From Patescibacteria group bacterium (GTDB taxonomy: Bacteria > Patescibacteriota > Patescibacteriia > SG8-24 > DYFX01): 64,000 nt of DNA. The notes beneath the pieces were generated by a model. It searched no databases, had not been told where the DNA came from, and saw only the letters and a program-made list of their open reading frames with translations. Position 1 is the stretch's first letter; every line of letters starts with the position of its first letter. Below, piece after piece: positions 24,976-61,804 of the stretch. The translations under genes and the position numbers were made by a program. The DNA is taken from contig CP129476.1 of assembly GCA_030583805.1 (NCBI GenBank), positions 509,429-573,428 of the forward strand. The letters run 5' to 3'.

Positions 24976-24979
24976 AGGT

Positions 24980-36693: not shown

Positions 36694-36698
36694 TGAAA

Positions 36699-36726: not shown

Positions 36727-36776
36727 TTGCGCGGCTAACCTTGGCAATTCTGCCACCAGGGGTACACTGGTGGCAT

Positions 36777-40596: not shown

Positions 40597-40618
40597 ACCG
40601 TTCCAGTATAGCACCGAT

Positions 40619-47173: not shown

Positions 47174-48168
47174 GGCTTCTTGCTGAAGCTGTTCATGAAC
47201 ATCACGAAGGTCGTGCGGAAGGCGTCTGGCCGAGACACGCTCTCCGTCCCGCCCTCCACCACACCCTGCGCATGCGCGAGCCGATATATCATTCCGTCAA
47301 GGCTCACGTACGCGCTCATGGCGTCTGAGGATCGAATGCCTTCAAGTCCGGATTTCGTCACGAACTGTTCAACTTGCGTCGGCGAGACCCCGGGGTTTCT
47401 CGTCAAATACCAGTCGAGAACCGATTGATTTCCAGGATTGTCTTCCCTTGCGATCTCGAAATAATCGTTCGCCGCAATCACGAAAACGTACGCATTTGAA
47501 AATTCTTGGAAGCTTCCGGCTTCCGGCGCCAAAACCGTGAAGGCGTCATCGGCAGCGACAAACTCGACAACCAGGTTCGCTTCTACAAGTTTCGTAGGCT
47601 TGAATCCCGTCGGATTGTAGAGATTCATCACCTCCAGACCGTCCGAATAGCCATCACCATCCGTGTCGCTGTTGAGCGGGCCGGTGCCATACAGCGTTTC
47701 CTCCGCATTGGTCAACCCGTCATTGTCCGGATCCAGCGCTTCATCGTTCTGCGGAGTAACCGCGGGGGGCTCAACCTCGGGTTCTGGCTGCGGTTCGGGT
47801 TGCGGCTCAGGCTGCGGCTCGGGCTGCGGTTCGGGTTGCGGCGTCGGCAGCGTCACGGACGGCGCAACAGGCTGCGGCGTCGCCGCCGGCCGCAAGAACC
47901 ACCAGATCGCAAAACCCATGCCCGCCAAAAGCACGACGGCAAAGATCGGTATCAGGAGCCACTTCTTACTCCCCTTCCCGTCGGCATGTTTCGTCGGCGG
48001 CGCAGACCCCGTCGCTGCAGGCGTCGGCGCGTTCGGCTGCGACGATGTAGGCGCTGGCGCCCCCTTCGGCAGCTGCGCCTTTGCCGCGACGCCGTAAAAC
48101 TGCTCCGGGATCGTATAGATGACCGGATCCTTCGGCGCGGCGGATTGCGGAACTGGCTGCTCGGGCAT
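47170..48168 (-). CDS. Single-pass membrane protein with a (PQPE)n low-complexity linker, thrombospondin type-3-like DxDxDG calcium-binding repeats and a C-terminal globular domain
   Basis: TM WLLIPIFAVVLLAGMGFAIWWFL. PQPEPQPEPQPEPQPEPQPEPEVEPP. DPDNDGLTNAEE / DTDGDGYSDGLE. 4-nt overlap with ybeY. Confidence 0.55.
   Translation of the reverse strand: MPEQPVPQSAAPKDPVIYTIPEQFYGVAAKAQLPKGAPAPTSSQPNAPTPAATGSAPPTKHADGKGSKKWLLIPIFAVVLLAGMGFAIWWFLRPAATPQPVAPSVTLPTPQPEPQPEPQPEPQPEPQPEPEVEPPAVTPQNDEALDPDNDGLTNAEETLYGTGPLNSDTDGDGYSDGLEVMNLYNPTGFKPTKLVEANLVVEFVAADDAFTVLAPEAGSFQEFSNAYVFVIAANDYFEIAREDNPGNQSVLDWYLTRNPGVSPTQVEQFVTKSGLEGIRSSDAMSAYVSLDGMIYRLAHAQGVVEGGTESVSRPDAFRTTFVMFMNSFSKKP
47784..47840. 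repeat. Tandem 12-nt repeat (ggctgcggttcg/ggttgcggctca variants) encoding (PQPE)n
   Basis: Seen in the sequence. A similar array occurs at ~48421..48510 in the paralogous downstream gene. Confidence 0.7.
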
Positions 48169-48180
48169 AACGGTCGGATG

Positions 48181-48789
48181 TTACGGCGCGGGCGGGATTT
48201 GCAGGAGCTTGCCCGGGCCCTTTGGATCGTAGCCGTTTCTTACTTCATCTCCGTCCGAGTACGTGTCGCCGTCCGTATCCGCGTTGACCGGGTCGGTGAC
48301 GTAGACCTCGACCTCTTCGCGATCCGACAGACCGTCGCCGTCGGTATCGACCATTCCGGCATTCGTTCCGATCTGGGCTTCGCGCGCATCATTCAACCCG
48401 TCGCCATCCGTATCGACTTCAGGTTCGGGCTGAGGTTGCGGTTCAGGCTGGGGCGGTTCCGGTTGCGGCTCTGGCTGCGGCGGTTCCGGTTGAGGTTGCG
48501 GCGCCGGTTCAGGCATCGGCACTCCGCTTTCCGGCACGGAAGGAGGCGTACCGCCACGCAAAGCGAAGTAGGCTGTTGCACTGCCGCCGATCAAGACAAC
48601 CGCAAGCACGGCGATCAGGATCCATTTGTGCCCGAGACTTGATTGTTCCAACGTCACGCCTGGCGCGGCCGTTACGGAAGGCGGCGCGGTCGGCAGTCCT
48701 TGCGGCGGCGAAGCCGGAGCTTTCTCCGAGGGAATTTCCGCGAAGATGTCGGCTGGTTCAGTTTTGTCGTCAAAGAGGAAGAAAATCAT
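48181..48789 (-). CDS. Paralogous single-pass membrane protein with (PQPE)n plus TSP3-like DTDGDGLSD repeats (202 aa)
   Basis: TM WILIAVLAVVLIGGSATAYFAL. PEPAPQPQPEPPQPEPQPEPPQPEPQPQPEPE. VDTDGDGLNDARE, VDTDGDGLSDREE, NADTDGDTYSDGDE. Confidence 0.55.
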   Translation of the reverse strand: MIFFLFDDKTEPADIFAEIPSEKAPASPPQGLPTAPPSVTAAPGVTLEQSSLGHKWILIAVLAVVLIGGSATAYFALRGGTPPSVPESGVPMPEPAPQPQPEPPQPEPQPEPPQPEPQPQPEPEVDTDGDGLNDAREAQIGTNAGMVDTDGDGLSDREEVEVYVTDPVNADTDGDTYSDGDEVRNGYDPKGPGKLLQIPPAP

Positions 48790-48795: not shown

Positions 48796-49272
48796 TTATT
48801 CTACACAAAAACTTGGTCGCTGTCCTGCGGCAGCCGCTTCCTGTTCACGTGCCGCGACCCAAGCTTTGTCCTGTGTTTTCCCGTCCGTCATCGTCTTGAG
48901 CGGATCCGTGCAGTACGTACGCACCTCTTCGAGATCGCTCAGGCCGTCCGCGTCCGTATCCTTGCGCGAAGGGTCGGTGCGCAAGGCGGCCTCCTCGCCA
49001 TCAGACAATCCGTCGGCGTCCGTATCGCGCAAGGCCGCGTCAGCAGTCACTGGCGGCGCGTCTTTTTCAGGCGGCACGATGCCTTGCGGCTTCGACGTCG
49101 AAGATGGCGAGCCTGGCGTGACGGGCCGTGTGCCCGCACCGCCAATCGGCGTCGTTCCATCCGACGCGGGCGGCGCGATACTGGCCGTGCGGGCGCGGCT
49201 GATGATCACGACGGTCGCGATGCCGGCAAGCAGCACCGCGACCACGCTCAGGATAATGACGAGTCGCTTCAT
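48796..49272 (-). CDS. Third paralog: single-pass membrane protein with TSP3-like DTDADGLSD repeats (158 aa)
   Basis: MKRLVIILSVVAVLLAGIATVVIIS. RDTDADGLSDGEEAALRTDPSRKDTDADGLSDLEE. Confidence 0.55.
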   Translation of the reverse strand: MKRLVIILSVVAVLLAGIATVVIISRARTASIAPPASDGTTPIGGAGTRPVTPGSPSSTSKPQGIVPPEKDAPPVTADAALRDTDADGLSDGEEAALRTDPSRKDTDADGLSDLEEVRTYCTDPLKTMTDGKTQDKAWVAAREQEAAAAGQRPSFCVE

Positions 49273-49273: not shown

Positions 49274-52200
49274 TTAGTCGCTCGCGTTCGGACCGTCGGC
49301 CCTGTTTACGTACTTGTTTTTCATGGTGAAGCGTCCTTCCGGCGAAGCGGCCGTCTTGTCGATGCGTCCGATGTACCACATGCACGGATTGCCGGAGATA
49401 TCCGAGACGGACGAGAGCAGGCGCGTCGTGCCGCTCGTGACGCCGGAGACGCTCGCGTCCGATCCCGATTCGATCGTGAAGATGGAATTGCTCTTGATGG
49501 TCGCGCTGGCCGCCTTCCACCAACCGCTGTTGCGATTGAATTCAGGCATGTTGGCGTAGTTGCCGTCCACGAAACAGCTGCCGCCGTTCGCAAAGACGTG
49601 ATAGGTGCCTTGGGGCAACGACTGGGTTGAAAGCACCATGATCTCAGGATCCGTGGCGTGCGTGCCTCCCGTCACGTCCCAGAAGAGACGGATGTGGTCG
49701 GCCGCGAAGTTGCCGTTGCCGACGTAGCGCGTATCTGCAGCGCTCGCTTTCCAGCCGAAGTACTTGGTCTGCCCTGCGAGAGGCCCTGAACTGTAGACAG
49801 CCTTCACATAGAGGTCTACTTCGTTGGCGGCATTGTGAGGCGTCGGCCACGAGATCTTGAAGCGGAAGTCGCCGGGCAGGAGCGTACCGTTGTCGCAACC
49901 GCCGGTATAAAGGCCGCAACCCCTGGAGCACAGGACCTGACCGGCTGTGCCGGCACCCTGTGAAGCGCAGCTCGGTGCCGATCCACCAGCGAACGTGTTG
50001 TTATCGCAGACTTCACCGTAGGCCGAATGGATGATGCCGTCACCGCAATAGCCTCCGTTCGGATCGTAGACGCAGTCGTTGCGGCAGACGTAGGTCGTGC
50101 CTTGACCGCGTGCTTGCGGATCGCCCTGGCCATCGCACTGTTCGCCGAATTGCGTCTGTCTCACGCTGTCTCCGCAGAATGCGGGACTCTTGGCGTTCGT
50201 GCCGAAGCAGGCGTTCGAGCAGTAGTTGCAGGAGCCGTCCATGCGGTAGGCCACGCACGGGCCGTTCGCGCCGCATTCAGCGTCGTTCGTGCACAAGCGA
50301 CCGTTCACCTTGCACTTCCTGGCCGTCGCCGCCGCCTGCGTATTCGTGTAGGGCTCGGGCTGGCACTGCGTATTGAACGCGATGCATTGACCCTCGCCGC
50401 CTTGGCAATACTGGCCGGAGACGCAGTCGGAAGCGCTGCGGCACGGCGCACCTTCAGGCGCGCTCGTTCCCGTCCCCGTATACGGAGTGTATCCGGGGTC
50501 GAACGACGTGCCCGTATCGCCGATATCCACGCGCGGCGGACCACCGCCGGACGCCGTTGTAACGGTCAGGTTTTGATCGCGCGTCGACATGTTGCCGTTG
50601 CCGTCGAAGGCGTCGATCGAGATGACGTGAATGCCGGCCGAAAGCGCGCCGACGTTGACCGAGCAGGCTGCCGAAGCGAGACGCGGATTATAGCGGCAGG
50701 TCTGGCGCAGCACTTTGACGCCGGCTGTCGTGAGGTAGATATCGATGTTATCGACAAGTGCGGCGGCATCCGTCACGTCCGAGACCGTAATAACAACGCT
50801 GTCAGCCGTGTTCGGGCTCGTAGGCGCCGTGGTGATCGGACCGATGACGGGAGGCGTCGTGTCGCCGGGGACTCCGGCGTTGCATTCGCCGGGACCGCAG
50901 GTCGCGAACGTCGCGATCGTGCCAGCGAAACGAAGCGCGGCTTCGCCAAGAGGTCCGTACATCGGGATCGCGACGTCGGAGCGCGCAAACCTCTGCTTTG
51001 ACGGAGCAGCGGCCGAAGGCGTAGAAGCGCCCGGATAGTTGCGGCAAACGCCCGGCAAGCAGTCGTTGTTCGTCGTGCAGCCTTTGACTCCGCTCGTGTC
51101 CGCCGGGTTCTGGTAGGTGCGGCTGCACCAGGCCGTGACGGGACCAGGGTCGCACGTTTCCGGCGGCGCCGTAATCGTCCGGTCGCCGCAGAAGGCGCCG
51201 GAGATCGTTTCGATCGAGCAGTCGTTCTTGCAGTAGTTGCAGACGGAACCGTATTGCGGCGTGCAGAGGACGCCGTTGGCCGCGCCGTTGTCGCACTGTT
51301 CGACGCCGGAGCGCACGAAGCCGTCGTTGCAGACGTTCAGGCGGCAGGACGTGAGACATGCTCCGTTCGGCGAATTCGCCGCGCCGTCGTCGCACTGCTC
51401 CGCGCCTTCGATCACGCCGTTGCCGCACGCGCCTGACGGACGGCAGACGGACCAGTCGTTGAACGTGCAGGCTTCGCCGACCGGTTCGGTCGCGGGTTTG
51501 CAGCTCTTGGCGCGCGTTTGCGGGAGGCCGCCCGGCGTCACGGCGCACAACGCGCACGTTTCTCCGCTGGCGCAGTCCGAATTGCTTGAGCAAGAAGCGT
51601 AGTTGCTCGACGCGCCGTTCGTGTCAGCCAAGGAAGAGCCGCTCGGAATGCAGACGCCGGGTGCCGTCGCCTGATTGCCGTCGCATTCTTCATCGCCATT
51701 CGTCTCGCCGTCGCCGCACCGCGGGCCGGCGCCGCGGCAGTCCCAGGCGCAGAAGCCGTACTCGCCGTTGTTCGCGCCGTCATCGCAGGTTTCGCTGCCA
51801 TTCCTCACGCCATCGCCGCAGAAGTTCATGCGGTCGGTGCAGACCGAAGGGAACGGCAAGCCGGAGCAGTCAGAATTCGTGGCGCATGCCTGCGCGAGAT
51901 CGCAGCTGCCGTCGGCGCAGTTGCCGTCGAAAGCCGCGCGCTTCGTAATATTGACGCAGCGTTTCACGCAACCCAGGCTGCCGCTGCGGCAGCGTCCGTA
52001 CTGGCCGTTTTGCGCGCCGTCGTCGCAGCTTTCACCCGCGAAGGTTTCGAGCGATCCGTTACCACAAGCGGCCGGTCCTGGGCAGGCGGTTTGCACCTGC
52101 CATTCGCACGCGGCGTTGCAGCTTTCGAGCGATTGGCCTCCGCTGGCGCAAGCGACGTTGCGCGTCTGACCGATCTCGCAAGCTTCCGTGCCTTCAAGCA

Positions 52201-55200
52201 AGCCGTTGCCGCACGCGCCGCCGGCCGCCGGGCCGACGAGCGGTACGCCGATCGGCATGCAGACGTCCTGTACGGAGCACTCGGCGGACGCGGTGCAAGC
52301 GGCGCCGGTGGTGAGACACGCCTTCGGAGCCGTTGGCGAGGGCAGGCCGGCGCAGACCGGCGTGATCGAAATGCGCGTCGTGCAGTTTCCGGTCGTCGGA
52401 CCGGTCGGAATCCACGAGCAGCCGAGCGCGGCTTCGCAGCTGAAGAGCGAAGTTTTCGCGGCGCACGACGTGCCGAGCCATTGGTAGGTGACGTACTCGA
52501 AGTCGACCGACATGCGGTAATCAATGCCGCCGATCGAGCGGTACTGGTAGACGTGCGAATGCGCCGGGCAAGCGAATACACCGAGCGTATCGTTGTAGCA
52601 GGTTTCCGCTTCGAACGTCGGGCGGCAGACGTCGCCCGCGCCGCCCGCGCAGTCGCCATCGGCGGCGCATGCAGTGCGGCTGATGGAGCACTCCGAACCG
52701 AAGGCTTCACAGCGGTTGAACGCGTTGACCGGATCGACGACGGCTCCGGCCGCGCCGAGTTGCTGGCTCCAGGACGGCCACTTGGACGTGGTGAATCCGC
52801 GCACGAAGCTTCCGGACTCGACTTTCGGATAGAAGCCCGTCTGTTCGCGCGTCGTTTCCAGCGCGTTTTCGATGACGCGCATATCCTGCCAGCGGCGCAT
52901 GTCGCGGCGGATCTTGTCCTTGTCGGAATCGCAGCGCATGTCAGCCGGTCCTGCCGGAAGCGCGCGCACGCAATCGAGGTCGGTCGAGCACATGATCGGC
53001 GCCGTCGATTCCGCCGTCAGGTGGAGAATCTCCCCCGCCGCGTTCTTACAGACGTTGGTCACGCGATCCGAAGGCACGAGGTTGGTATTGAAATTGACGT
53101 TGCCGACCAGGCGGTTGAAGATTTCCGCCGTGCGAGGATCCGCATTGTCGTTGTACGCGAAGACGTAGATGTACGAGCGGATGTCCGGATCGCCGTATTT
53201 GTCGGCCGCGCCGACGTACACGGTGCGCTCGTCCTTGATCGCTTGGTAGCCGTCGACCGTCGCCGCTTCCGTCTTGCCGGAGAACCGCTGGGCGACGTAC
53301 CACTCTTGCGGCGTCAAACGATCGTAGTTCTCATACACGCGCATACCGATCGCGTCCGAAACCCGCCATTCCGGCTGGAAGCGGAAAAGCAGATCTTTCG
53401 AGCGGCAGGTGTCACCCGCGTTGCAATCGGCATTCGAAACGCACGCGCGCGGCTGCGAGAAGTCCGTCGTCGCGGCGCAGAAGCGCAGGAGACCCGAACC
53501 TCCGACCGACTGGCCCTGCACGGGTTGCGGCATGAGTTCCGGAAGCGACGTGCCGGCGTTGTCTCGGCAATAGTAGAACTCGAAGTGGGTCTGCGGATCG
53601 ACATACGGAGCCCAGGCGCCCGTCAAAATGTTGCGGCGCGGCCACGGCATCTGGCAGAGCATGATCGTGATCGAGGATTTGCCGATCTTGTCGCTGCCGG
53701 CGGTCGAAGGCGTGAGGGCGGTATCCGTTTGGATGCGCGCCGTCGCCGCGACTTGCTCCTGGCCGTTAATCCCCTTGGTGGCTTGCACGGTCGCGGAAGA
53801 AGCGCCCGCAGCCGCCGTCAAATCGAGGAGCGCGCCAACTGTCGCGTTTTCGGGAATCGTCGCCCAGCTCCACGTCCAGTCGTACACGCCGGGCACCGGC
53901 GCGATCGCCTCGAGGCGGCCGCCGCGGTCCGTCATGGCCGTCGCCGTGATCGTGAGCGGGATTGCGGAGTCTTGAATGAGCTCCGTGGCCGGCGTGGTTT
54001 GCACGACGTCGAAACGGCAGACGTCCGTGCCCGTCGTGAAGTCCTGGATCGTATCCACTGTTTCCGGATATCCGACGCCCTTCACCGTTTTCACGCCCGT
54101 CTGGCCGCCGCGCACCGTGACGCGGTACAGGCGCGACGAGCTCAGCATCTGCCTGGGCGCGAACGTCGAAAGCGTGCGAACCGTGCCATCGGGCGCGGTG
54201 ACGTTCGTGTGCGTGAAGGTGCCTTCAACCGGCGCGCAGATGTGCGATGCGGAAACTTCCAAGCCCACCAGCGAGCGGAAGAAGCGTCCGATCGATGAAG
54301 CCGCGCGCGCGAACCAGGAGCGCGGACCGTTTTCGTTATACGCATGGCTCGGGCAGGATTCGACGATGAGGCCGCCCTGGAGCGAGCCGGTATTCATCTC
54401 TTCGCCGAACTGCACGCTGATCTGCACGTTGCGGCATTCGTTGCCGCCCTTGGGATTGATGTCGGGAGCGTCGGGACGCGGGTAGCAGCAGGCGCCGGCG
54501 CCGCAAGAAAGGTTCGAACCGAAGGCCGAACAGTCGCTGTCGGCGCGGCAGGAACATTCGACGTTCACGCTGCCTTGTCCGGAGACGGTGCCGATTGCCG
54601 CCGTCACCGAGGCGTTGCAGTTGTTCCTGGCGTCGCACTGGTTGCGAGCCTCGACGACCTGCGTCGGATCGATGTTCGCATCGAGCGCCGGCGCTTCGCA
54701 TTCCTCACCGCCGCCGTTCTGAATGCCGGTCAACACGTCGGCGGGCTTCACGGTGACGACCGTGTCGCCGCAGAAGGCGCGGAGCTCCGGATCGGAACCC
54801 GTTTTGGTGCAGCGCGAGCTGCAGCCGGAAGACGGATCGCCGTTTTCAGCGGCGGCGTCGCAGTTCTCGCCCTTGGCCGGTTCGATCACACCGTTGCCGC
54901 AGCAGTTCGTACCCGCCGTGCAGGTTACCGGGTTTCCGCGCAAGAGACAGCTTTGGCCGCAAGCGAAATTCGGACGCGTCGGATTGCGCTCATCGGACGC
55001 GCCGAGCGCGACGGACGGACGTCCGGCGACCAGAATCTGCGTCGCGAGACCGCCCGCGCCGAGGATGTAATCGCATTGTTCTCCGGGTTCAAGCGCGCCG
55101 TTGCCGCAGACATAGACGTTCTGGCGGGAACCTTCAAGCAAGCAGCGCGAGCTGCAGCCGTCTCCACCTTCGCTGTTACCGTCATCGCACGCTTCGCCGA

Positions 55201-58200
55201 CGCCGGTTGAGGCGTTGCCGCAAGCCGAGAGGCCCGGCGTCGAACCGACGAGCAAGCAGGCGGTCGTGCAGCCTGCGGCCGCCGTGCCGTTGGCAGGACC
55301 CGCATCGCACTCTTCGCCGCGATCCGCCTGGATCGCGCCGTCGCCGCAGCCATTGGCAAGCGTATTGCCGGTCAACAAGCAATTGGCGTTGCAACCGTTC
55401 AAACCGGGCGTGTCGCAGGCTTCGCCGCGCTCGAGGGTGCCGTTGCCGCACGCGGGCGTACCCGGCGGCTGGCTTCCCGTCATGAGGCAGTTCGTCGAAC
55501 AGCCGGCCGGAAGGACGGGGTTGGTATTGATCAATGTTCCCGGCGGCACGTCGGGCAAGAACGAGAAGGCAACCGGCGCGGCCGGGTTCTGCGCCTTGCT
55601 CCAAGCCCAGTTATAGGAAGCCGCGCTCAGGATCTGGCCGCCCGCCGCGCACGCATCAGGAGAGCTGAGCGGGAGCGCGTTCACCGCCGAAACCTGGCCG
55701 ATGTAACGCAGCGTCGTCTGCGAGGGTTCCACAATGACGCGCTGCGGGCCGCACGGATCGCCGGTAAGGCGCGTGCGGAAAATCCAGCTGAAGGCGTTGC
55801 CTTCGTAGTTCAATCCCGTAAGCGGCGCCTGGCTCGTGCTCATAGCCGTGCCGAGAATGACCGCGCGGTACCAGGTATTGGCCGCCAGAACCGGATTGCC
55901 GAACGTCAGGAGGCGCGACGCCGCGGTGTAGCTCGGAGCAAGCGGCACTTCGCCCTCGAAGGCGAGGCACGATTCGTTGCGGCAGCGGTACAAGCGGACA
56001 TTCGAAAGGATGCTGCCCGGTCCGCTCTCGATCATCGGCGTGTTGAAGTACGCGAAGCTCACGGAGTTCACGCAGGCCTGATCGCAATCATGCGGCCCGT
56101 AGTCCACCACGCGCGGGTTGGCGTAGTCGATCGTCAGCGTGCCCGCATCGCTAAAACCGTCGACGGTCGAGCGGATCTGGATCGGCGGACCAGGGTCTGT
56201 TTCGGAAACCGGCGTCGCGACGGCTTCGCATTGGCGCGAGCCGCCGAGCGAGACGATCGTCGCTTTTCCGGGATCGGTCGAAACCCAGTTCACCGTGCGT
56301 CCGTCGCACGAAAGAATCACGCAGCGGCTTGAAAGCGGGAAGGCTTGGTAGTCTTTGGTTTCGTCGGCGGCGGAAATCAAGGCGTTGCCCGGCTGTACGT
56401 CGACGCCCGAGAGCGTGCAGGGGCCCGCGCCCGTCTTAAAGGACGTAACGTAGGCGCCGCCCGCACGGCTGTCGTAGTTGCCGTCGAGCGGTTGCGCGCC
56501 GCGCTCCGGCGTTCCCAAGCTTTGCACCTGGTCGCGGATCGTCAGGCGGTACCACGTGTCCGGCTGGAGGCCGTTCACGGGCAGTACGAGCTGCGAGCGG
56601 CCATCCGTGTCGTAATCGACGATCGAAGGCGCGCCGGCCGAAGCGACGGGCGTGCAGGTGTTGGAAATGGTGGCGCCAGTGCCGCAAGCTTCGAAAATGA
56701 CGTTGGAAGCGTTGATCGTGGCCGGATCCATCGGCAAGCTGAAGCGCGCCGTCATGGCGCCCATGTCGGTGCAGACGTCGGTCATGCCTTTGAACGGATT
56801 CGGGCTCGGCATCGCCGACGGCGGCGAGACTTGGCACGTCGCGTTCTCCATTACGATCGGGAAGATCGGAATCGGGCCGGTTGAAAATTGCCACGCGAAA
56901 CCGCCGGCAGCCGCGGGAGCGCCGCACGACGCGCGGCACGCGCCGTCATCGCAGCAGCTGCGTCCGCTGCCGCAAGAGGCGTCGCCACCGCTTTCACGGC
57001 AGTCGCGTACCTGGAAATTGACGCCGTTCGATTCAGCCGGCGTGGCGCCGACAAACGTGCGCACGCGCACGGGGCCGGTCGTCGCGCCATCCGGAACGGA
57101 AGCGGCGATCGACGAAGACTGCCACTGGCCGATCGAAGCGGCGTTCTGGTTCTCATTGAAACGGACGGCATCAGGATGCAGCGCCGTGAAGGCCGGGAGA
57201 TCGGCGGCGGAAATCGTGCCGAAGCCGTCGCCGTACAACGTAACCGACGTGCCGACCGGACCGTTGTCGGGGTCGACGCGGCAGAGGCCGGGCGTGAGCG
57301 GGTCGGTGTTGATCGTGAACGGCACGGCGTTCGAAGCGCGGCCGTCGGAACGCACGACCGTGACGTTGTAGGCGCCGAGCGCCACGGCAGTGTCAGCCGG
57401 TGTCGTGAAACGCGCCGGCACTTTGACGGTCACGCTGGCGTTCGTCCAATAGCCCGCCGCGCATTGCGCCGGGAAGCTGATGTCGCCAACCGCCTCGCCG
57501 GCGGCGTTCCGGAAACGCACCGTGCCTCCGGATCCGAAGTTGGAACCAAAGACCGAAAGATACGTGCCCACGGAACCGTCTTCAGGCGTGAGGTATTCGA
57601 TGCGCGGTTCCGTTCCGGCCTCGGGAGGCTCGACGCGGATGCATGCGGGGTTCGAAGGCTGGCCGCCGACCGTCACGCGCAACAAGAAATTCGAGCCGTC
57701 AAAGTCGGTTTCGACGTTCGGAATGGTCGGCGAGAACGAGGTTTCGCTCCACGGCGACACCTGCGAGGCCTCGGCAGCCGTCGCCCAGTCCTGGATTTGC
57801 GAGCAGTCCGAACCGGCGCGCGTGAGCTGCACGCGCGAATCGCCCTGTCCGCCGCCGAAGGCGACGCCCGTCACCGTGACGGTATTGCCGGTTTTGACCG
57901 AGGTCGGAGCGACCGAGCAAATACCCGGGCGCGCAACGTCGTTCACTTGGAAATCGGTGATGATCGGTCCGTAGGCGTCGTTGGTCGCGTCTTGGCGGCC
58001 GCCGGAAGCCGTGACGCGGATCGGTCCCGTGACCGCGCCTTGCGGCACGAGCACGACGATACGCGTATCGCTCCAAGCGTTGGCACATTGCGCAACGGTC
58101 GCATCCTGTTCATCCCCCGCCGCGGCCGTTCCCAAGAACGTGACGGTTCCCGCCGTCGAGCCGAAGCGGTCGCCCGTGATCGTCACGAGGTTGCCGGGAC

Positions 58201-59530
58201 GGCCGTCGCGCAACTGCACGTCGGTGATTTGAGGATTCTCGACGCACTGGCCGTTCTGGCAGAGGCCGGAAGCGCATTGGCCGTTCTGCGTGCAAGCGCC
58301 GCCGGTGCACGCGCCGCAGGAGCCTCCGCAATCGACGCCGACCTCGTCTCCGTCGCGCACGTTGTTGAAGCAGAACTGCGGACGCACCGTGACGCGCACC
58401 GCGCTTGAGCTCGCGTTGTCGCCGTCGATATTGAAAGCGCGCGCCGAAAGCGAAACGGTGCGAACCGGCACGAGTCCGGCCGTGTCCCACACCGCCTCGC
58501 TCGAGTAGGTTGAGGGCGCGATGTTTTGCGCATTGCCGTCCGCCGTGAAGAAGGCGCCGTCAGCCAAGTATTCGACGGAAGCGATGCCGGCCTCGTCGGT
58601 CGCGATCGCCTGGATCGGCACGAGATCGCCGGCCGGCACGGACTGTCCGTCGGTCGGGCTCGAAATCGTGATCGTCGGCGGTTCCGTCAGCACCGTGTCG
58701 CCCGTGCGGAAGCTCTGCGAGCAGGTCGCCCCGAGACCGCAGCTGATCGTGCGCGGATCCGATGTCGAGGCGTTGCGAAGGCCGGCGCTCACCGTGATTT
58801 GATAGTCGGAGTTCTGTTCGAGGCAGCGCCGGTCGGCGTTCGGAGCCGGGCACGGCGTAACTGGACGCAAGCGGATCGTGAAATTCTCGACGATCGGCTC
58901 GTAGTCGACGTTCGTGCGCGTCGTGCCTTCGACTTTTTCAAGACGAATGTTGGCGCGGATGTTCGTCGCGTCGTCGGTCGGCGCGGCGCTGAACGTGACC
59001 GCCGCCGTGACGTCGTATTTGGCGAGCGAACCTGCCGGCTGGATGGCCGTCGGGCGGAAAGCGCCTCCCGTACCGCCGCCGAATCCGCCGCCTCCCCCGC
59101 CTCCGCCACCGCCGCCTCCCCCGCCGGGGCCTCCGGTCGTCGCGGTGATGAGGGCGCTCAGGACGTAGGAAACGATAGCGAAAGCCGACATGATGATCAC
59201 GAGACCGATCACCGCGCCGGAGAGCGTCTTTTTCGCCCGTTCGATCTTGCTTTCATCCCCCGCCGCGGTCATCCAGGTGAAGCCCGCGTACAGGATGAGC
59301 ATGAGCGCAATCGTGCCGAGTAGGCCGAGGCCGACGCGGATGATGCGCGCGATCGTGATGCGGATGTCGGCCGTGCCGGTGCCGATTTCGGCGCCGATCT
59401 GTCCGGGCAGGAGTTCGTTCGACGTCACGCTTTGCGCAAGCGCCGCGTCATGAGACGCGAACCACAAGCACGGCGCGAGCAGCGCCAGCGCAATGATCCA
59501 TGATCGATGACGTCGGAAGAACGCGCACAT
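49274..59530 (-). CDS. Giant (3418-aa) cell-surface protein. It has an N-terminal signal plus VirB2/TrbC-pilin-like double-TM anchor, a poly-Gly linker, multiple IPT/TIG-like Ig-fold domains, many myxococcus-type Cys-rich repeats (CGDG...EECDDGN), an EGF-like Cys module and a C-terminal beta-rich domain.
   Basis: N-terminus ...AALAQSVTSNELLPGQIGAEIGTGTADIRITIARIIRVGLGLLGTIALMLILYAGFTWMTAAGDESKIERAKKTLSGAVIGLVIIMSAFAIVSYVL then GGPGGGGGGGGGGGGGGFGGGTGG. IPT-like PQITDVQLRDGRPGNLVTITGDRFGSTAGTVTF.... Cys repeats CGDGVRNGSETCDDGANNGEYGFC, CGDGETNGDEECDGN, CGNGVIEGAEQCDDGAANSPNGAC, etc. Uninterrupted 10.26-kb ORF. Confidence 0.85.
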   Translation of the reverse strand: MCAFFRRHRSWIIALALLAPCLWFASHDAALAQSVTSNELLPGQIGAEIGTGTADIRITIARIIRVGLGLLGTIALMLILYAGFTWMTAAGDESKIERAKKTLSGAVIGLVIIMSAFAIVSYVLSALITATTGGPGGGGGGGGGGGGGGFGGGTGGAFRPTAIQPAGSLAKYDVTAAVTFSAAPTDDATNIRANIRLEKVEGTTRTNVDYEPIVENFTIRLRPVTPCPAPNADRRCLEQNSDYQITVSAGLRNASTSDPRTISCGLGATCSQSFRTGDTVLTEPPTITISSPTDGQSVPAGDLVPIQAIATDEAGIASVEYLADGAFFTADGNAQNIAPSTYSSEAVWDTAGLVPVRTVSLSARAFNIDGDNASSSAVRVTVRPQFCFNNVRDGDEVGVDCGGSCGACTGGACTQNGQCASGLCQNGQCVENPQITDVQLRDGRPGNLVTITGDRFGSTAGTVTFLGTAAAGDEQDATVAQCANAWSDTRIVVLVPQGAVTGPIRVTASGGRQDATNDAYGPIITDFQVNDVARPGICSVAPTSVKTGNTVTVTGVAFGGGQGDSRVQLTRAGSDCSQIQDWATAAEASQVSPWSETSFSPTIPNVETDFDGSNFLLRVTVGGQPSNPACIRVEPPEAGTEPRIEYLTPEDGSVGTYLSVFGSNFGSGGTVRFRNAAGEAVGDISFPAQCAAGYWTNASVTVKVPARFTTPADTAVALGAYNVTVVRSDGRASNAVPFTINTDPLTPGLCRVDPDNGPVGTSVTLYGDGFGTISAADLPAFTALHPDAVRFNENQNAASIGQWQSSSIAASVPDGATTGPVRVRTFVGATPAESNGVNFQVRDCRESGGDASCGSGRSCCDDGACRASCGAPAAAGGFAWQFSTGPIPIFPIVMENATCQVSPPSAMPSPNPFKGMTDVCTDMGAMTARFSLPMDPATINASNVIFEACGTGATISNTCTPVASAGAPSIVDYDTDGRSQLVLPVNGLQPDTWYRLTIRDQVQSLGTPERGAQPLDGNYDSRAGGAYVTSFKTGAGPCTLSGVDVQPGNALISAADETKDYQAFPLSSRCVILSCDGRTVNWVSTDPGKATIVSLGGSRQCEAVATPVSETDPGPPIQIRSTVDGFSDAGTLTIDYANPRVVDYGPHDCDQACVNSVSFAYFNTPMIESGPGSILSNVRLYRCRNESCLAFEGEVPLAPSYTAASRLLTFGNPVLAANTWYRAVILGTAMSTSQAPLTGLNYEGNAFSWIFRTRLTGDPCGPQRVIVEPSQTTLRYIGQVSAVNALPLSSPDACAAGGQILSAASYNWAWSKAQNPAAPVAFSFLPDVPPGTLINTNPVLPAGCSTNCLMTGSQPPGTPACGNGTLERGEACDTPGLNGCNANCLLTGNTLANGCGDGAIQADRGEECDAGPANGTAAAGCTTACLLVGSTPGLSACGNASTGVGEACDDGNSEGGDGCSSRCLLEGSRQNVYVCGNGALEPGEQCDYILGAGGLATQILVAGRPSVALGASDERNPTRPNFACGQSCLLRGNPVTCTAGTNCCGNGVIEPAKGENCDAAAENGDPSSGCSSRCTKTGSDPELRAFCGDTVVTVKPADVLTGIQNGGGEECEAPALDANIDPTQVVEARNQCDARNNCNASVTAAIGTVSGQGSVNVECSCRADSDCSAFGSNLSCGAGACCYPRPDAPDINPKGGNECRNVQISVQFGEEMNTGSLQGGLIVESCPSHAYNENGPRSWFARAASSIGRFFRSLVGLEVSASHICAPVEGTFTHTNVTAPDGTVRTLSTFAPRQMLSSSRLYRVTVRGGQTGVKTVKGVGYPETVDTIQDFTTGTDVCRFDVVQTTPATELIQDSAIPLTITATAMTDRGGRLEAIAPVPGVYDWTWSWATIPENATVGALLDLTAAAGASSATVQATKGINGQEQVAATARIQTDTALTPSTAGSDKIGKSSITIMLCQMPWPRRNILTGAWAPYVDPQTHFEFYYCRDNAGTSLPELMPQPVQGQSVGGSGLLRFCAATTDFSQPRACVSNADCNAGDTCRSKDLLFRFQPEWRVSDAIGMRVYENYDRLTPQEWYVAQRFSGKTEAATVDGYQAIKDERTVYVGAADKYGDPDIRSYIYVFAYNDNADPRTAEIFNRLVGNVNFNTNLVPSDRVTNVCKNAAGEILHLTAESTAPIMCSTDLDCVRALPAGPADMRCDSDKDKIRRDMRRWQDMRVIENALETTREQTGFYPKVESGSFVRGFTTSKWPSWSQQLGAAGAVVDPVNAFNRCEAFGSECSISRTACAADGDCAGGAGDVCRPTFEAETCYNDTLGVFACPAHSHVYQYRSIGGIDYRMSVDFEYVTYQWLGTSCAAKTSLFSCEAALGCSWIPTGPTTGNCTTRISITPVCAGLPSPTAPKACLTTGAACTASAECSVQDVCMPIGVPLVGPAAGGACGNGLLEGTEACEIGQTRNVACASGGQSLESCNAACEWQVQTACPGPAACGNGSLETFAGESCDDGAQNGQYGRCRSGSLGCVKRCVNITKRAAFDGNCADGSCDLAQACATNSDCSGLPFPSVCTDRMNFCGDGVRNGSETCDDGANNGEYGFCAWDCRGAGPRCGDGETNGDEECDGNQATAPGVCIPSGSSLADTNGASSNYASCSSNSDCASGETCALCAVTPGGLPQTRAKSCKPATEPVGEACTFNDWSVCRPSGACGNGVIEGAEQCDDGAANSPNGACLTSCRLNVCNDGFVRSGVEQCDNGAANGVLCTPQYGSVCNYCKNDCSIETISGAFCGDRTITAPPETCDPGPVTAWCSRTYQNPADTSGVKGCTTNNDCLPGVCRNYPGASTPSAAAPSKQRFARSDVAIPMYGPLGEAALRFAGTIATFATCGPGECNAGVPGDTTPPVIGPITTAPTSPNTADSVVITVSDVTDAAALVDNIDIYLTTAGVKVLRQTCRYNPRLASAACSVNVGALSAGIHVISIDAFDGNGNMSTRDQNLTVTTASGGGPPRVDIGDTGTSFDPGYTPYTGTGTSAPEGAPCRSASDCVSGQYCQGGEGQCIAFNTQCQPEPYTNTQAAATARKCKVNGRLCTNDAECGANGPCVAYRMDGSCNYCSNACFGTNAKSPAFCGDSVRQTQFGEQCDGQGDPQARGQGTTYVCRNDCVYDPNGGYCGDGIIHSAYGEVCDNNTFAGGSAPSCASQGAGTAGQVLCSRGCGLYTGGCDNGTLLPGDFRFKISWPTPHNAANEVDLYVKAVYSSGPLAGQTKYFGWKASAADTRYVGNGNFAADHIRLFWDVTGGTHATDPEIMVLSTQSLPQGTYHVFANGGSCFVDGNYANMPEFNRNSGWWKAASATIKSNSIFTIESGSDASVSGVTSGTTRLLSSVSDISGNPCMWYIGRIDKTAASPEGRFTMKNKYVNRADGPNASD
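59068..59135. repeat. GC-only simple repeat (ggc/ggg/gga codon run on the coding strand) encoding the poly-Gly linker of the giant protein
   Basis: Plus-strand ccgccgccgaatccgccgcctcccccgcctccgccaccgccgcctcccccgccggggcctcc. It is a homopolymeric-codon tract prone to slippage. Confidence 0.7.
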
Positions 59531-59533
59531 AGG

Positions 59534-61321
59534 TTATGGGAGGAAACCGCAGGCGACCTGCGAGGGTACGCCGTTGCAGCAGAACGCTTCGTTTCCGGTG
59601 CAGACCGTTTGGCCCGCGCCCGGATAGAAGCAGTTCTGACGCAAGTCGCGCAGGCCCGAAGTCAGGCTGAGCGCGTACGGCTGGTTGATCGACAAGAGAT
59701 CGTGGTCGATGATGCCTTTCGTCTGGTCCGGATCGCCGCCGGCGACCGAAGAAACCGACTCGGTCGCGAGCGAGAAGTTGGTCGGAGCGCCGTTCGCGCC
59801 GGGCACGAGCTTCGCGTTATCGCTCGTGAAGCTCGCCGAGCTCATGAGCTTCGAGAACGTCACGGACATCGGCAGATCGCGGGCGATCGAGCCCTGCAGC
59901 ACCGCCGGTTCGTGCGAAACCACGACAGGCGGCACGAGATCGATTTCGTTGGAGGTGCGGAAGTCGTAGTCGTAGTCGTCGTCCGGAGAACCTTGCGCCG
60001 CGCCGTTGCCGTTGCCGTCGAGCGAATTGCCCGCCATGTCGGTGATGCCGTTCGGAGGATAGATGCCGAGCGGCGGCGCGGCCGTGAGCGCGTCGGCGCG
60101 GACGCTGACGTTGATCTGCTGGTTGGCCGGGAGACAGAAGACCTGCTCGCCGCACGAGTTCGTGCCGCACGATTCGTCCGTGCGGAATTCGACGGTGCGG
60201 TAGGCGTTGCCGATTTGCTCCCGGCCCGCGACGACGTTGCCGCCCGACCGCGTGATGGAGAAGCCGGAGCCGACGCTGACCGGATCGATCGCTTCATTGA
60301 ACGTGACGTGGACGAGCGAGTTGCGCGGAACGCCGCTCGCGCCGTCGGCCGGCACGACGTACGAAACCTGGGGCGGCGTAAGATCGAGTACGGTCGACAC
60401 TTGGAACTCCCAGAGATAGCCGGAGTTGAACGTGCCGGTGAAGGCCGGAGCACCCCCGTCGCGCCGCACGCCGTCGGTGCCGCCGCGAAGCGCGATCGTA
60501 TAGAAGACGTTTTCCGTCGGGCTGCCGAAGCAGTTTGCCGGACAGTTGCGCTGCAGGAACGTGAAGCTGCGGCCGTCGGCCGAAACGGCGACGTCGATGT
60601 CCGCGGCCGTCAGGCTCTGGGCGAATTTCTGAGGGAATTGATTCGAAGCCGCGCCCACGTCGACCGATTTCAAGATGGCGACCGTGGCATTGGCTCCGCC
60701 CACGACGATCGAGGCGGGATCGATGCGCTGCTTGAAAGTCACGACAACGCGCGTGTTGCGCGCGACGCCGGTGGCGTTGCGATTCGGGTAGTGGCTTTCG
60801 ATGATGCCGTTGCCCAAGGCGCCCGCCGGACACGTCGCGGAAAGGCCGATGCAGGCGATATCGTTCGGCGCGCTGGAACCGCCGCCCGTGCCTCCCCCGC
60901 CGAGCGCGCCGCCCTCGCCGAGCAGCCTGCTGATGACGAACGAGGTGATGGCGAACGCCGACAGCATAATCACGAGGCCGATCACGGCGGACGTCAGGAT
61001 TTTCTTGGCGCGATCGACCTTCTCGGGATCGCCGGCAGCCGTCATCCAAATGAAGCCGGCGTACAAGACGAGGAGAAGCGCGATCGTGCCGAGGAAACCG
61101 AAGAATGCGCGAATGATGCGCGCGATCGTGATGCGGATGTCGCCCGTGCCGGTGCCGATGACTTCGCCGATCTCGGTCGGCAGCACTTCATTCGACGTGA
61201 CGCCTTGCGCCTGCGCGACATGCGCGAATGCGTAAGACGCAAAAACCACCAACACGAAACTGGCGACCGTGAAGGTGGCTTTGACGAGCGTTTGGGAGAG
61301 TGACTTCCTTCCTGAGAGCAT
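59534..61321 (-). CDS. 595-aa surface protein sharing the VirB2/TrbC-pilin-like N-terminal anchor and Gly linker with the giant gene, then Ig-like/BIG-like beta domains and a Cys-rich C-terminus
   Basis: ...AQAQGVTSNEVLPTEIGEVIGTGTGDIRITIARIIRAFFGFLGTIALLLVLYAGFIWMTAAGDPEKVDRAKKILTSAVIGLVIMLSAFAITSFVISRLLGEGGALGGGGTGGG.... A stretch of ~60 nt is nearly identical to the giant gene (gatgcgcgcgatcgtgatgcggatgtcg.ccgtgccggtgccgat). Confidence 0.8.
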   Translation of the reverse strand: MLSGRKSLSQTLVKATFTVASFVLVVFASYAFAHVAQAQGVTSNEVLPTEIGEVIGTGTGDIRITIARIIRAFFGFLGTIALLLVLYAGFIWMTAAGDPEKVDRAKKILTSAVIGLVIMLSAFAITSFVISRLLGEGGALGGGGTGGGSSAPNDIACIGLSATCPAGALGNGIIESHYPNRNATGVARNTRVVVTFKQRIDPASIVVGGANATVAILKSVDVGAASNQFPQKFAQSLTAADIDVAVSADGRSFTFLQRNCPANCFGSPTENVFYTIALRGGTDGVRRDGGAPAFTGTFNSGYLWEFQVSTVLDLTPPQVSYVVPADGASGVPRNSLVHVTFNEAIDPVSVGSGFSITRSGGNVVAGREQIGNAYRTVEFRTDESCGTNSCGEQVFCLPANQQINVSVRADALTAAPPLGIYPPNGITDMAGNSLDGNGNGAAQGSPDDDYDYDFRTSNEIDLVPPVVVSHEPAVLQGSIARDLPMSVTFSKLMSSASFTSDNAKLVPGANGAPTNFSLATESVSSVAGGDPDQTKGIIDHDLLSINQPYALSLTSGLRDLRQNCFYPGAGQTVCTGNEAFCCNGVPSQVACGFLP

Positions 61322-61348: not shown

Positions 61349-61804
61349 CTACGCTTTGTTTTGCAAGAACTCTTTGACCTTTTTGCCGACCAGGCCGCCG
61401 TCGGCCTTTCCCTTCAATTCTTTCATCATTTCGCCCATAAGGCGACCGAACGCGGCTTCGCCGGAGAGTCCGAGCTCGGTGGCTTTTTTGACCACGGCGG
61501 CTTGAACGTCTTCTTCGGAAAGCTGCGCAGGGAGAAACGTTTCGAGGAGCGCGAGTTCGGACTGCGTCGATTCGGCCAAGTCCTTGCGATCGGCCTTCTC
61601 GAAATCCGAGAGGGCATCGCGCAATTTTTTGACTTCGCGTCCGATGACTTCGATCGCCTCGTCATCGCTCAGCTCTTTCACTTGCTTGTCGATCTCGGCA
61701 TTTTTCATGGCCGAGCGGAGCATGCGAAACGCGGATACGGCCGGGGCGTCCTTGGCCTTCATCGCTTCGACGAACCGCTTTTCGATGTCGCTTCTGAGAG
61801 ACAT
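61349..61804 (-). CDS. GatB/YqeY-domain protein
   Basis: MSLRSDIEKRFVEAMKAKDAPAVSAFRMLRSAMKNAEIDK...LSDDEAIEVIGREVKKLRDALSDFEKADRKDLAES...LLETFLPAQLSEEDVQAAV.... Canonical YqeY. It directly follows rpsU as in Bacillus rpsU-yqeY. Confidence 0.9.
   Translation of the reverse strand: MSLRSDIEKRFVEAMKAKDAPAVSAFRMLRSAMKNAEIDKQVKELSDDEAIEVIGREVKKLRDALSDFEKADRKDLAESTQSELALLETFLPAQLSEEDVQAAVVKKATELGLSGEAAFGRLMGEMMKELKGKADGGLVGKKVKEFLQNKA

Follow-up and report, generated by a model that had tools for sequence, protein, structure and literature searches.

The window (the whole 64-kb stretch of DNA analysed) contains two adjacent, co-oriented genes, A and B, for proteins of 595 and 3,418 amino acids (aa); both ORFs were confirmed with the ends previously given, and lie 3 nt apart. 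B is followed, at intergenic distances of 1, 6 and 12 nt, by three genes (TSP3a, TSP3b and TSP3c) for TSP3_bac single-pass membrane proteins. These paralogs had already been assigned to the same locus, and their PF18884 matches and conserved array with A and B agree with this. A 411-nt gap with a terminator-like hairpin lies between TSP3c and DAGK. The DNA has a GC content of 0.65, and long spurious ORFs are numerous on other frames (e.g., 762 aa at 52010-54298 (+)). The features are:

61349..61804 (-), YqeY (GatB/YqeY-domain) protein; PF09424, 2e-40; 27 nt ahead of A
59534..61321 (-), gene A, 595-aa modular VirB2-like pilin (Pfam, homologues, AF2)
61208..61321 (-), putative signal peptide of A, residues 1-38, end AQA/QG; n-, h- and c-regions in the sequence
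60920..61207 (-), pilin hairpin module of A, residues 39-134; PF18895 36.0 bits, NF045849 40.1 bits
61108..61159 (-), 52-nt stretch in A, codons I55-R71, partner of that in B
60821..60919 (-), Gly-rich disordered linker of A, residues 135-167; pLDDT <50 at 135-148 and 151-167
49274..59530 (-), gene B, 3,418-aa giant modular VirB2-like pilin (translation, Pfam, orthologues)
59435..59530 (-), putative signal peptide of B, residues 1-32, end ALA/QS; AF2 helix 7-31
59147..59434 (-), pilin hairpin module of B, residues 33-128; PF18895
59335..59386 (-), 52-nt stretch in B, codons I49-R65, near-identical to A
59060..59146 (-), poly-Gly linker of B, residues 129-157, almost pure Gly (sequence)
51044..59059 (-), conserved ectodomain of B, residues 158-2829 (Pfam, NCBIfam, BLAST)
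49277..51043 (-), lineage-specific distal region of B, residues 2830-3418 (BLAST against 57 distant giants)
48796..49272 (-), TSP3a, 158-aa single-pass membrane protein with two TSP3 Ca-binding-type repeats; PF18884 2.6e-11; start 1 nt past the B stop (junction sequence)
48181..48789 (-), TSP3b, 202 aa: TM helix, PEPQ-repeat spacer, TSP3 repeats; PF18884 2.2e-16 (sequence and synteny)
47170..48168 (-), TSP3c, 332 aa: TM helix, PEPQ spacer, TSP3 repeats, unannotated ~170-aa C-terminal domain; PF18884 7.7e-9

Architecture of the two proteins

A is built, in this order, of a signal peptide, the hairpin, a Gly linker, three Big_5 Ig-like domains and a Cys-containing C-terminus, Pfam returning PF18895 and three Big_5 stretches. 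Its AF2 model (mean pLDDT 81, ectodomain >90) has a helix at 9-35 in the signal segment, whose A-x-A-Q motif is kept in the family consensus, and hairpin helices at 62-93 and 99-137; the linker region is Gly-rich across the orthologue alignment. The protein has 437 homologues, nearly all of the 120 listed combining PF18895 and PF13205, and 44 columns are invariant across 116 sequences.

In B, Pfam finds TIG, Big_7, Big_5 and PF18895, and AF2 places the hairpin helices at 56-87 and 93-131 (pLDDT >90). The conserved ectodomain carries Big_7, TIG, Big_5, two clusters of Cys-rich acidic repeats and a long middle, ~700 residues of which are without Pfam or NCBIfam annotation. Among the modules first proposed for the ectodomains, TIG and the Cys-rich repeats (TIGR02232, 11 CG[DN]G units) held good, whereas EGF-like modules found no Pfam support at E<=0.1. 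Residues ~50-2800 align by BLAST to 57 distant giants, and past residue ~2850 a match exists in at most about 4% of them; close relatives equal B in total length. The distal region has no Pfam or NCBIfam match. Neither protein was found to contain a binding domain of known specificity, an SLH or other wall-binding module (Pfam), an LPXTG motif or hydrophobic tail at the C-terminus, or a prepilin-peptidase motif at the N-terminus.

The hairpin module and its relatives

The modules of B (33-128) and A (39-134) are identical at 68/96 residues (71%), each preceded by a signal-peptide-like segment (end AxA/Q) and followed by a Gly-rich stretch, and the AF2 hairpins and the low-pLDDT linker of A likewise bear out the shared N-terminal organization described in the initial annotation. 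Its proposal of a VirB2/TrbC-type pilin was sustained for one family and not for the other. PF18895 (T4SS_pilin, cut-off 26.6 bits) is passed by A (36.0 bits) and B (31.5, or 38.3 for the N-terminus alone), and the module is, on these profile scores, a member of that family. On the other hand, the classical TrbC/VirB2 profile (PF04956, cut-off 27.9 bits) gives 13.7-16.5 bits in A and B, below threshold, and in hhalign the module pairs with Agrobacterium VirB2 at P=0.0017 and 15% probability; this alignment, weak but in-register (54 columns, 30% identity), lends weak support to a direct likeness. A/B and classical TrbC/VirB2 (Agrobacterium T-pilus, PDB 8cue/8exh) have in common the AxA/Q signal-peptide end, two hydrophobic helices, a short charged loop and a G-x-x-W-M motif closing helix 1. 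A profile-sequence search of the PDB yielded no meaningful match, its only hits, to designed "Pizza" propellers, being spurious and due to repeats, and a fold search cannot separate this helical hairpin from other hairpins. For the Mbov_0395 family pilin-like conjugal transfer protein (NF045849, Mycoplasma ICEs), A lies at the curated cut-off of 40 bits and B below it (29.4 bits over the same hairpin); that family is small and sits on a mobile conjugative element, whereas A and B are chromosomal and non-mobile, with large ectodomains.

Patescibacteria VirB2-like pilins (PF18895; Southlakia epibionticum T4SS locus) belong to the same domain family and phylum, and the A/B modules are 55-64% identical to stand-alone pilins of 128-130 aa. 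In seven-gene pilin arrays only gene 4 is close to the anchors (identity 0.48-0.65, against 0.22-0.42 for the others); for its 128-aa product the figure is 52-65%, and in a single case this cognate pilin and the cassette occur in one assembly (CAZHHN01, loci L024 and L084). Residues invariant in stand-alone pilins (G83, W86, G91 and G109; alignment A2) are also present in the anchors, and the N-terminal peptide TSNELP..IG..IGTGT.DIRITIARIIR is common to A, B and array pilin 4. By these alignments, the anchor is more than a general-purpose TM segment: it shares its subtype with a single stand-alone pilin from the array of this lineage. The T4SS-like pathway that handles this pilin therefore probably recognises the anchor too, and pilin and anchor may be in contact.

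Known Patescibacteria pilins measure 112-150 aa, a few reaching 441 aa, and many are encoded near virB4; pilin-giant ectodomain fusions are not described in these papers (PMC10633639; PMC12102498; PMC12857230). The hairpins of A and B, in contrast, bear ectodomains of 430 and 3,260 residues, in a fixed operon by ftsA/ftsZ separate from the arrays. A survey of 3,035 genomes reported many VirB2-like pilins and no PrgB-type adhesin (PMC12102498), and in a cultured Patescibacterium VirB2-like pilin arrays belong to an essential T4SS (PMC10633639; PMC12857230). A search for T4SS machinery had been suggested at the outset; covering the 64-kb window, it returned no such gene (VirB4, VirB6 and VirD4 included), and around the pilin arrays examined none of these three turned up at a distance of 10 kb or less.

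Conservation of the cassette and of the anchors

Altogether, 80 related loci were compared, 75 of them extending past the ~600-aa gene on its downstream side, and in 72 of these 75 the A homologue is followed by a giant with its own pilin module (1,668-3,420 aa for complete genes, longer where cut off). Linkers of the giant orthologues are Gly- or Ser-rich and of low complexity (over the 40 residues past the module, Gly makes up a mean fraction of 0.32). The order YqeY-A-B-TSP3 proteins-DAGK-FtsA-FtsZ is kept; 73 loci have YqeY as the gene just before the A homologue, and in six Uhrbacteria loci it is fused in frame to a pilin-like hairpin. About 20 loci have TSP3a homologues downstream of the giant, and full-length TSP3c homologues in distant loci measure 304-367 aa. 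The position ahead of DAGK-ftsA-ftsZ is fixed even where the A proteins of relatives are only 33-40% identical. A relative of A is encoded in 364 GTDB species genomes; records with the cassette are labelled Uhrbacteria, Falkowbacteria, Paceibacter or "Parcubacteria group", the source of the window being an uncultivated, ultra-small bacterium of the Patescibacteria. A, B and the three TSP3 membrane genes form a conserved chromosomal operon, with YqeY just upstream, and the A-B pair is a real core device, probably of the cell surface, because it is conserved in hundreds of related species; since the arrangement recurs whole in about 70 other genomes, it is far beyond chance.

A near-identical DNA stretch of ~60 nt shared by both genes, first reported as a substrate for ectodomain swapping, does exist, but is 52 nt long, with 50/52 nt identical (2 mismatches, longest exact run 30 nt). 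Across the module, 43/68 codons are identical against 33.5 expected from codon usage, and the 16-codon identical run has a Monte Carlo p=4.5e-4. Anchor identity is 0.55 for A-B of the same genome, against cross-genome values of 0.44 (A-B), 0.46 (A-A) and 0.48 (B-B), and at other loci anchor DNA identity reaches ~90% over 230-270 nt (L013, L011, L009, L014 and L012). This level of identity, together with the 52-nt stretch, points to homogenisation of the A and B anchors by gene conversion, not to ectodomain swapping. The latter is not supported, as A and B each keep their own architecture in 72 loci; recombination between these two direct repeats would remove the A ectodomain, with no swap.

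Possible roles at the cell surface

We regard it as fairly likely that A and B act as adhesin-like fibres, held by the hairpin and with a distal tip that varies between lineages, used for host or substrate contact, with the TSP3 proteins as accessory partners. A Sec signal peptide would be cut away at AxA/Q, and the PF18895 two-helix hairpin would lie in the membrane with its N-terminus out, charged loop in and C-terminus out, since a signal peptide plus an even number (two) of TM helices leaves the C-terminal part outside. After a disordered Gly-rich tether, the remainder would be extracellular, namely three Ig-like Big_5 domains in A and, in B, Ig-like domains and acidic repeats rich in disulfides, about 3,260 residues in all, with the lineage-specific ~590-residue distal part last. 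B would be a long adhesin-like fibre and A its shorter conserved partner, both displayed on the surface to meet a host cell or a substrate, and the TSP3 proteins could act as calcium-dependent accessory or envelope partners. Variable distal ~590 residues beyond a conserved ~50-2800 are as expected of a binding tip far from an N-terminal anchor, and the cassette probably serves attachment.

Similar designs are found in other systems. Modular type IV pilins (Streptococcus sanguinis PilB/PilC) likewise join a pilin module, a linker and an extra adhesion domain, although their fold and machinery are unrelated and the extra domains about ten times smaller; their prepilin-peptidase motif is missing from A and B. 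PrgB-type adhesins of Gram-positive T4SS are LPXTG-anchored, unlike A and B. Vampirococcus lugosii, of an epibiotic lineage, has giant membrane proteins of 1,392-4,163 aa thought to mediate attachment, which resemble B as very large surface proteins of interaction or adhesion domains; the passages on them mention no VirB2-like anchor (PMC8080830). No sequence similarity of A or B to these giants or to PrgB-type adhesins was found.

Incorporation into a pilus is possible. As true subunits, A and B would be pulled from the membrane into a VirB2-type filament alongside the cognate 128-aa pilin; present in few copies or at the tip, they would endow it with giant adhesins, like type IV minor/modular pilins or VirB5 at the T-pilus tip. 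The retained invariant residues, the mature extracellular N-terminal peptide shared with array pilin 4, the concerted evolution of the anchors and an extra stand-alone pilin between A and B in loci L063 and L080 all favour this; a bulky domain could hang from a filament by a flexible linker, and Patescibacteria have essential pilin arrays and a suspected pilus (PMC12857230). We still consider it rather unlikely: a VirB2-type pilus is yet to be seen in any Patescibacterium, the review speaking only of a "potential" one (PMC12857230), no assembly ATPase lies near cassette or arrays, a 3,260-residue C-terminal load on a ~95-residue pilin has no known precedent, and existing single-chain proteins with 2-17 tandem hairpins are better suited to lateral membrane packing than to filament extraction.

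Against the attachment reading, the conserved core place by ftsA/ftsZ would suit a housekeeping envelope role equally: the products of the cassette, TSP3 proteins included, would build a constitutive layer on the surface or a spacer (S-layer-like or wall-spanning), possibly coordinated with division. The fixed position directly upstream of DAGK-ftsA-ftsZ, the invariant architecture in 364 species genomes and the invariant columns of A agree with such a scaffold. Nonetheless, it seems unlikely, as gene-order conservation is usual in reduced genomes and does not imply shared function, the 411-nt gap and terminator-like hairpin set TSP3c apart from DAGK, the variable end of B better matches a recognition tip than a lattice, and wall-binding modules were not found in A or B. 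Classical TrbC/VirB2 propilins (RP4 TrbC, Ti VirB2) undergo C-terminal processing, and linker low complexity is conserved in character, not in sequence, both of which would fit a pilin module that only takes the protein across the membrane or along a T4SS-like pathway before a cut in or near the Gly linker frees the ectodomain. This is very improbable: the operon revealed neither a protease gene nor a protease site, and a freed 3,260-residue protein would forfeit the benefit of a conserved anchor subtype. An assembly chimera, raised as a possibility at first, or a chance open frame could be suspected from the GC-rich DNA and its spurious 762-aa ORF, but the chance of either is negligible, since residues 50-2800 align to the 57 distant giants, and independent assemblies, among them the chromosome-deposited OY970181.1 and OZ246416.1, encode orthologous giants that match B in N-terminal module and order of domains.

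Organization and conservation of the operon

The two adjacent and co-oriented reading frames described in the initial annotation were recovered on the minus strand with exactly matching limits, separated by only 3 nt. They correspond to the 595-aa protein A and to the giant B, and are followed by the three genes for TSP3-repeat membrane proteins originally described, all of them short and encoding single-pass proteins with TSP3_bac repeats. The five genes, hereafter the cassette, are distributed as follows:

59534-61321 (-), A, 595 aa
49274-59530 (-), B, 3,418 aa
48796-49272 (-), TSP3a, first short gene, 1 nt past the B stop codon
48181-48789 (-), TSP3b, 6 nt from TSP3a
47170-48168 (-), TSP3c, 12 nt from TSP3b

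A YqeY gene is situated 27 nt upstream of A, and a 411-nt gap after TSP3c is followed by genes for diacylglycerol kinase, ftsA, ftsZ, an HtrA-type protease and pyruvate kinase. The G+C content of the cassette region (~65%) is that of most of the window. Promoter and terminator scans remained at chance level (3 vs. 2.7 and 14 vs. 18.5 expected, respectively), and a terminator-like hairpin ~100 nt past TSP3c is only suggestive.

A total of 437 homologues of A pass the threshold in databases. Nearly all of the 120 listed among them measure 545-640 aa and combine PF18895 with Big_5, and those with a named source are assigned to Patescibacteria, Uhrbacteria, Falkowbacteria or the Parcubacteria group. 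When one genome was scanned for each GTDB species, 364 proved to encode relatives of A, among which 80 loci were fetched and their six-frame ORFs searched with a profile HMM built from 120 stand-alone pilins (small PF18895 proteins). A second, far longer gene starting with its own pilin module follows the ~600-aa gene in 72 of the 75 loci with downstream sequence, with complete lengths of 1,668-3,420 aa and cut-off examples of at least 3,625 aa; two of these giant-bearing loci lie on sequences deposited as chromosomes (OY970181.1 and OZ246416.1), where A is only 37-39% identical to that of the window. Residues ~50-2800 of B align to 57 distant giants, and the last ~590 residues are matched in no more than ~4% of them, close relatives sharing the same total length. 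YqeY precedes the cassette in 73 loci, and the TSP3 proteins, diacylglycerol kinase, FtsA and FtsZ follow it wherever the fetched flank reaches. Since the pilin-started giant, its alignment over ~50-2800 and its neighbors are conserved across loci, the giant frame is a real and old gene; the assembly chimera contemplated in the initial annotation is ruled out by the recurrence of giants after A and by the 57 aligned distant giants. Nor is the operon a mobile element: it belongs stably to the chromosome.

Some variations around this layout were also observed. In six loci (L042, L048 at 9069-9797, L055, L064, L067 and L068, four of them labelled Uhrbacteria), YqeY is fused in frame to a signal-like transmembrane segment and a pilin-like hairpin (242-255 aa), a gene fusion that ties YqeY to the pilin cassette. 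Two Uhrbacteria genomes present an extra pilin-module ORF between A and B (L063 11608-12123, called as 171 aa; L080 4991-5560, called as 189 aa and overlapping the 3' end of A). Genes for signal peptidase I (Peptidase_S26) and histidyl-tRNA synthetase are conserved at a distance of 1-5 kb on the upstream side of the cassette, distant relatives included (L001 5437-7635, L003 4742-6949, L020 101-2128), a position before which the window ends. Finally, an IS200-type Y1 transposase gene occupies 62962-63525 (-), where GC falls to 0.51 immediately upstream of the YqeY region; in the closest relative, a homologous gene is found at the equivalent position (L001 7776-8330).

The N-terminal hairpin and its stand-alone relatives

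A and B share the N-terminal module recognized in the initial annotation, with 68 of 96 residues identical between A 39-134 and B 33-128. In both proteins a segment resembling a signal peptide lies ahead of it (with the ending ALA/QS in B and AQA/QG in A, as judged from sequence only), and a Gly-rich stretch comes after it. The proposed VirB2/TrbC-pilin likeness holds with respect to PF18895 (T4SS_pilin), whose gathering threshold of 26.6 bits is exceeded by B (31.5), by its isolated N-terminus (38.3) and by A (36.0), whereas PF04956 (TrbC/VirB2) scores far below its 27.9-bit threshold (13.7 for B, 16.5 for the isolated B N-terminus). The custom stand-alone pilin HMM gave E-values of 6e-41 (B) and 1.1e-39 (A), and NF045849, the NCBIfam model for the Mbov_0395 pilin-like conjugal transfer protein of a Mycoplasma ICE, gave 40.1 bits for A and 29.4 for B against a cut-off of 40. 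About 16 of the best 120 stand-alone relatives match both PF18895 and PF04956, providing a transitive link to the latter, and hhalign placed the module in register with Agrobacterium VirB2, weakly (P=0.0017; query sequence validated against 8cue/8exh). A profile search of PDB sequences yielded no meaningful match, apart from spurious repeat-driven hits to the designer 'Pizza' proteins. Membership of both modules in PF18895 is thus established; a relation to classical VirB2 is suggested mainly by Pfam curation and by the relatives matching both models.

AlphaFold2 predicted a helical hairpin in B (68-sequence alignment; helices 56-87 and 93-131, pLDDT >90) and the same hairpin in A (116 sequences; helices 62-93 and 99-137), with pLDDT values of 82-96 for the hairpin helices of A and B; in the model of A the next segment is a linker predicted as disordered (pLDDT <50), after which the ectodomain is again modelled well. 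Neither N-terminus contains a prepilin-peptidase site (G/FTLIE-type, N_methyl) nor any corresponding Pfam match, neither C-terminus (...RADGPNASD, ...VACGFLP) contains an LPXTG motif or a hydrophobic tail, and Pfam detected no SLH domain in either protein.

With 595 and 3,418 residues, A and B exceed the ~110-150 aa of stand-alone PF18895 proteins. A 100-residue B module retrieves 161 proteins, the best 120 of which are all 74-152 aa long and 41-66% identical to it. Two of these, looked up in their contigs, both proved to be gene 4 (a 128-aa pilin) of seven-gene PF18895 arrays, whose members range from 112 to 441 aa and are in some cases extended at the N- or C-terminus. One of the two arrays shares the assembly CAZHHN01 with the cassette locus L024. 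Identity to the A/B anchors is 0.48-0.65 for gene 4 vs. 0.22-0.42 for the other six array genes, and the mature N-terminal peptide TSNELP..IG..IGTGT.DIRITIARIIR is common to gene 4 and the anchors. The anchors thus represent a specific pilin subtype and not a generic hydrophobic anchor. No excess was seen when co-evolution of the pilin with A/B inside a single genome was tested, gene 4 of the array locus L084 being 0.58-0.65 identical to the A and B of its own assembly and 0.62-0.63 to those of the window.

The family itself is very large (~80,000 clusters at 50% identity): in an exhaustive profile search, 80,696 cluster representatives reached E<=1e-3, and 811 reached E<=1e-30. The best 150 matches include proteins of 1,878-3,586 aa with a single module and others with 2-17 tandem hairpins. 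Examples of the latter in a single chain are P0241 (552 aa, six hairpins, no internal signal peptides) and P0264 (1,775 aa). They may be polytopic 'poly-pilins' or fused gene calls; if real, they would suggest that the hairpin can act as a laterally packed membrane module. Among array members, a 441-aa protein carries its hairpin at the C-terminus (378-434) and forms of 202-325 aa bear extensions, so modular pilins occur in several layouts. Next to the arrays L084 4305-8512 and L086 7687-11886 lie a gene for an SBP_bac_1 solute-binding protein and four divergent genes without annotation.

Ectodomains and evolution of the anchors

The ectodomain of B comprises Big_7 and Big_5 as well as several TIG/IPT domains (Pfam/NCBIfam), together with two main clusters of Cys-rich acidic repeats (TIGR02232/DUF4215) totalling 11 CG[DN]G units, and Cys makes up 5.2% of the whole protein. 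The TIG/IPT and Cys-rich repeats were correctly anticipated, and the EGF-like modules proposed alongside them were dropped, as no EGF model of Pfam or NCBIfam matches. About 700 residues in the middle and the last ~590 carry no Pfam or NCBIfam annotation. At B ~2190-2270 (window ~52800-53000), RRDMRRWQDMRVIENALETTREQTGFYP is reminiscent of how the globular head begins in type IV pilins and pseudopilins, and the motif recurs as RDTHRLEDLRFIEKLLQNYKNINGTYP in the giant orthologue P0336; matched by no Pfam or NCBIfam model, it is a lead only.

The near-identical DNA shared by A and B, originally estimated at ~60 nt, does exist but spans 52 nt with 2 mismatches (59335-59386 and 61108-61159; longest exact run, 30 nt). 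Codons are identical at 43 of the 68 identical residues vs. 33.5 expected from codon usage, including a run of 16 identical codons (Monte Carlo p=4.5e-4). Across genomes, the anchors compare as follows:

Mean identity of anchors across 72 genomes
A-B, same genome: 0.55
A-B, different genomes: 0.44
A-A, different genomes: 0.46
B-B, different genomes: 0.48

The paralogue of the same genome is the nearest neighbor of an anchor in 17 of 144 cases, and in L013, L011, L009, L014 and L012 the A and B anchors show ~90% identical DNA over 230-270 nt. The anchors therefore evolve in concert, for which gene conversion is the simplest explanation. The suggestion that the shared stretch serves to swap ectodomains between A and B did not survive: both keep their own architectures everywhere, which argues against exchange, and no chimeric architecture occurs in 72 loci. 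Crossing-over between the anchor direct repeats would delete the ectodomain of A.

Candidate roles of the operon and other features of the window

Type IV secretion (T4SS) genes are present in most Patescibacteria classes, often near dnaA, and the pilin arrays of Southlakia are essential; no PrgB-like adhesin was detected (PMC12102498, PMC10633639, PMC12857230), and a large genomic survey reported many VirB2-like pilins and no adhesin (PMC12102498). Polymerization of a VirB2 filament is yet to be demonstrated in any Patescibacterium (PMC12857230). VirB4, VirB6, VirB3 and VirD4-like domains, the first two of which had been put forward for a search, are absent from every sizeable ORF of the 64-kb window and from the 10 kb around the two pilin arrays. 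For the CPR predator Vampirococcus, giant membrane proteins have been proposed to mediate attachment (PMC8080830). The literature searched contains no description of pilin-anchored giant proteins, and some A homologues are already labelled 'type IV secretion system pilin/Big-like domain-containing protein' in public databases. The PF18895 family and VirB2-like pilins in Patescibacteria are already known; what appear to be new relative to that literature are the conserved A-B-TSP3 operon, a pilin hairpin bearing a >3,000-residue ectodomain, the identity of the cognate stand-alone pilin and the concerted evolution of the anchors.

The best-supported reading, which we consider rather probable, is a surface display operon with hairpin-tethered products. 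The signal peptide would be cut, leaving the hairpin N-out and C-out in the membrane, with the Gly linker as a flexible tether; A and B would then expose Ig-like and disulfide-rich fibres, B ending in a fast-evolving distal part suited to recognition, and the TSP3 proteins would probably be calcium-dependent envelope partners. From the array-pilin-4 subtype and the A/B homogeneity we infer that the anchor is handled by the same pilin pathway, and it may also pack against array pilin 4. Incorporation of A and B into an extracellular VirB2-type filament, a separate and more novel reading, seems rather unlikely. It is likewise doubtful that the 128-aa pilin co-assembles with the two modular pilins, one bearing a >3,000-residue adhesin fibre, into a VirB2-like filament or membrane platform. 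The main ordinary rival, a housekeeping envelope scaffold, draws on the fixed position beside ftsA/ftsZ and the S-layer-like Ig domains, and is itself unlikely. Release of the ectodomain by linker cleavage is very unlikely, and an artefact, with giants following A across loci, extremely improbable.

How ultra-small epibiotic bacteria recognize and hold their hosts, and what role the essential yet unusual T4SS and the pilin arrays play, are open questions in the field. The same pilin hairpin anchors a conserved pair of large surface proteins in hundreds of species, B being among the largest proteins in these small genomes (judged from the 0.9-1.2-Mb chromosomes of relatives), and the cassette offers concrete candidates for the missing adhesin within a defined operon. 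If co-assembly were true, it would supply the adhesin still missing from the essential, relaxase-less T4SS of Patescibacteria and constitute the first VirB2-class pilus with megadalton-scale modular subunits; gene conversion would maintain compatibility among the three anchors, and the distal tip would diversify along with the host. The locus also yields a clear prediction, namely an interaction or a common pathway for the anchors of A and B and one particular array pilin. Should this fail, the locus would still show that PF18895 serves for membrane tethering in general, beyond its use as a pilin, which would change the annotation of this very large family.

Elsewhere in the window, a tmRNA gene at 10269-10671 (+) (Rfam, 76 bits) directly precedes a low-GC stretch at 10700-17000 (0.49-0.56 vs. 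~0.62 elsewhere), which contains an HTH/sigma70_r4 protein, a 697-aa protein with a weak HATPase_c_3 match, several unannotated ORFs and, as its only PADLOC match, a type II C5 cytosine methyltransferase. Its appearance is that of an island integrated at the tmRNA gene; an integrase was not detected. A CHASE2-adenylate/guanylate cyclase (643 aa) adjoins a FecR-domain protein (519 aa) at 21504-24999 (-), and two PAS/HAMP histidine kinases are encoded at 36693-37859 and 39448-40641, together a fairly rich signalling set for a small-genome phylum. Finally, 4567-5793 (-) encodes a protein of 408 aa that contains DUF7151 repeats and weakly matches a collagen-like triple helix; it may be another surface protein.
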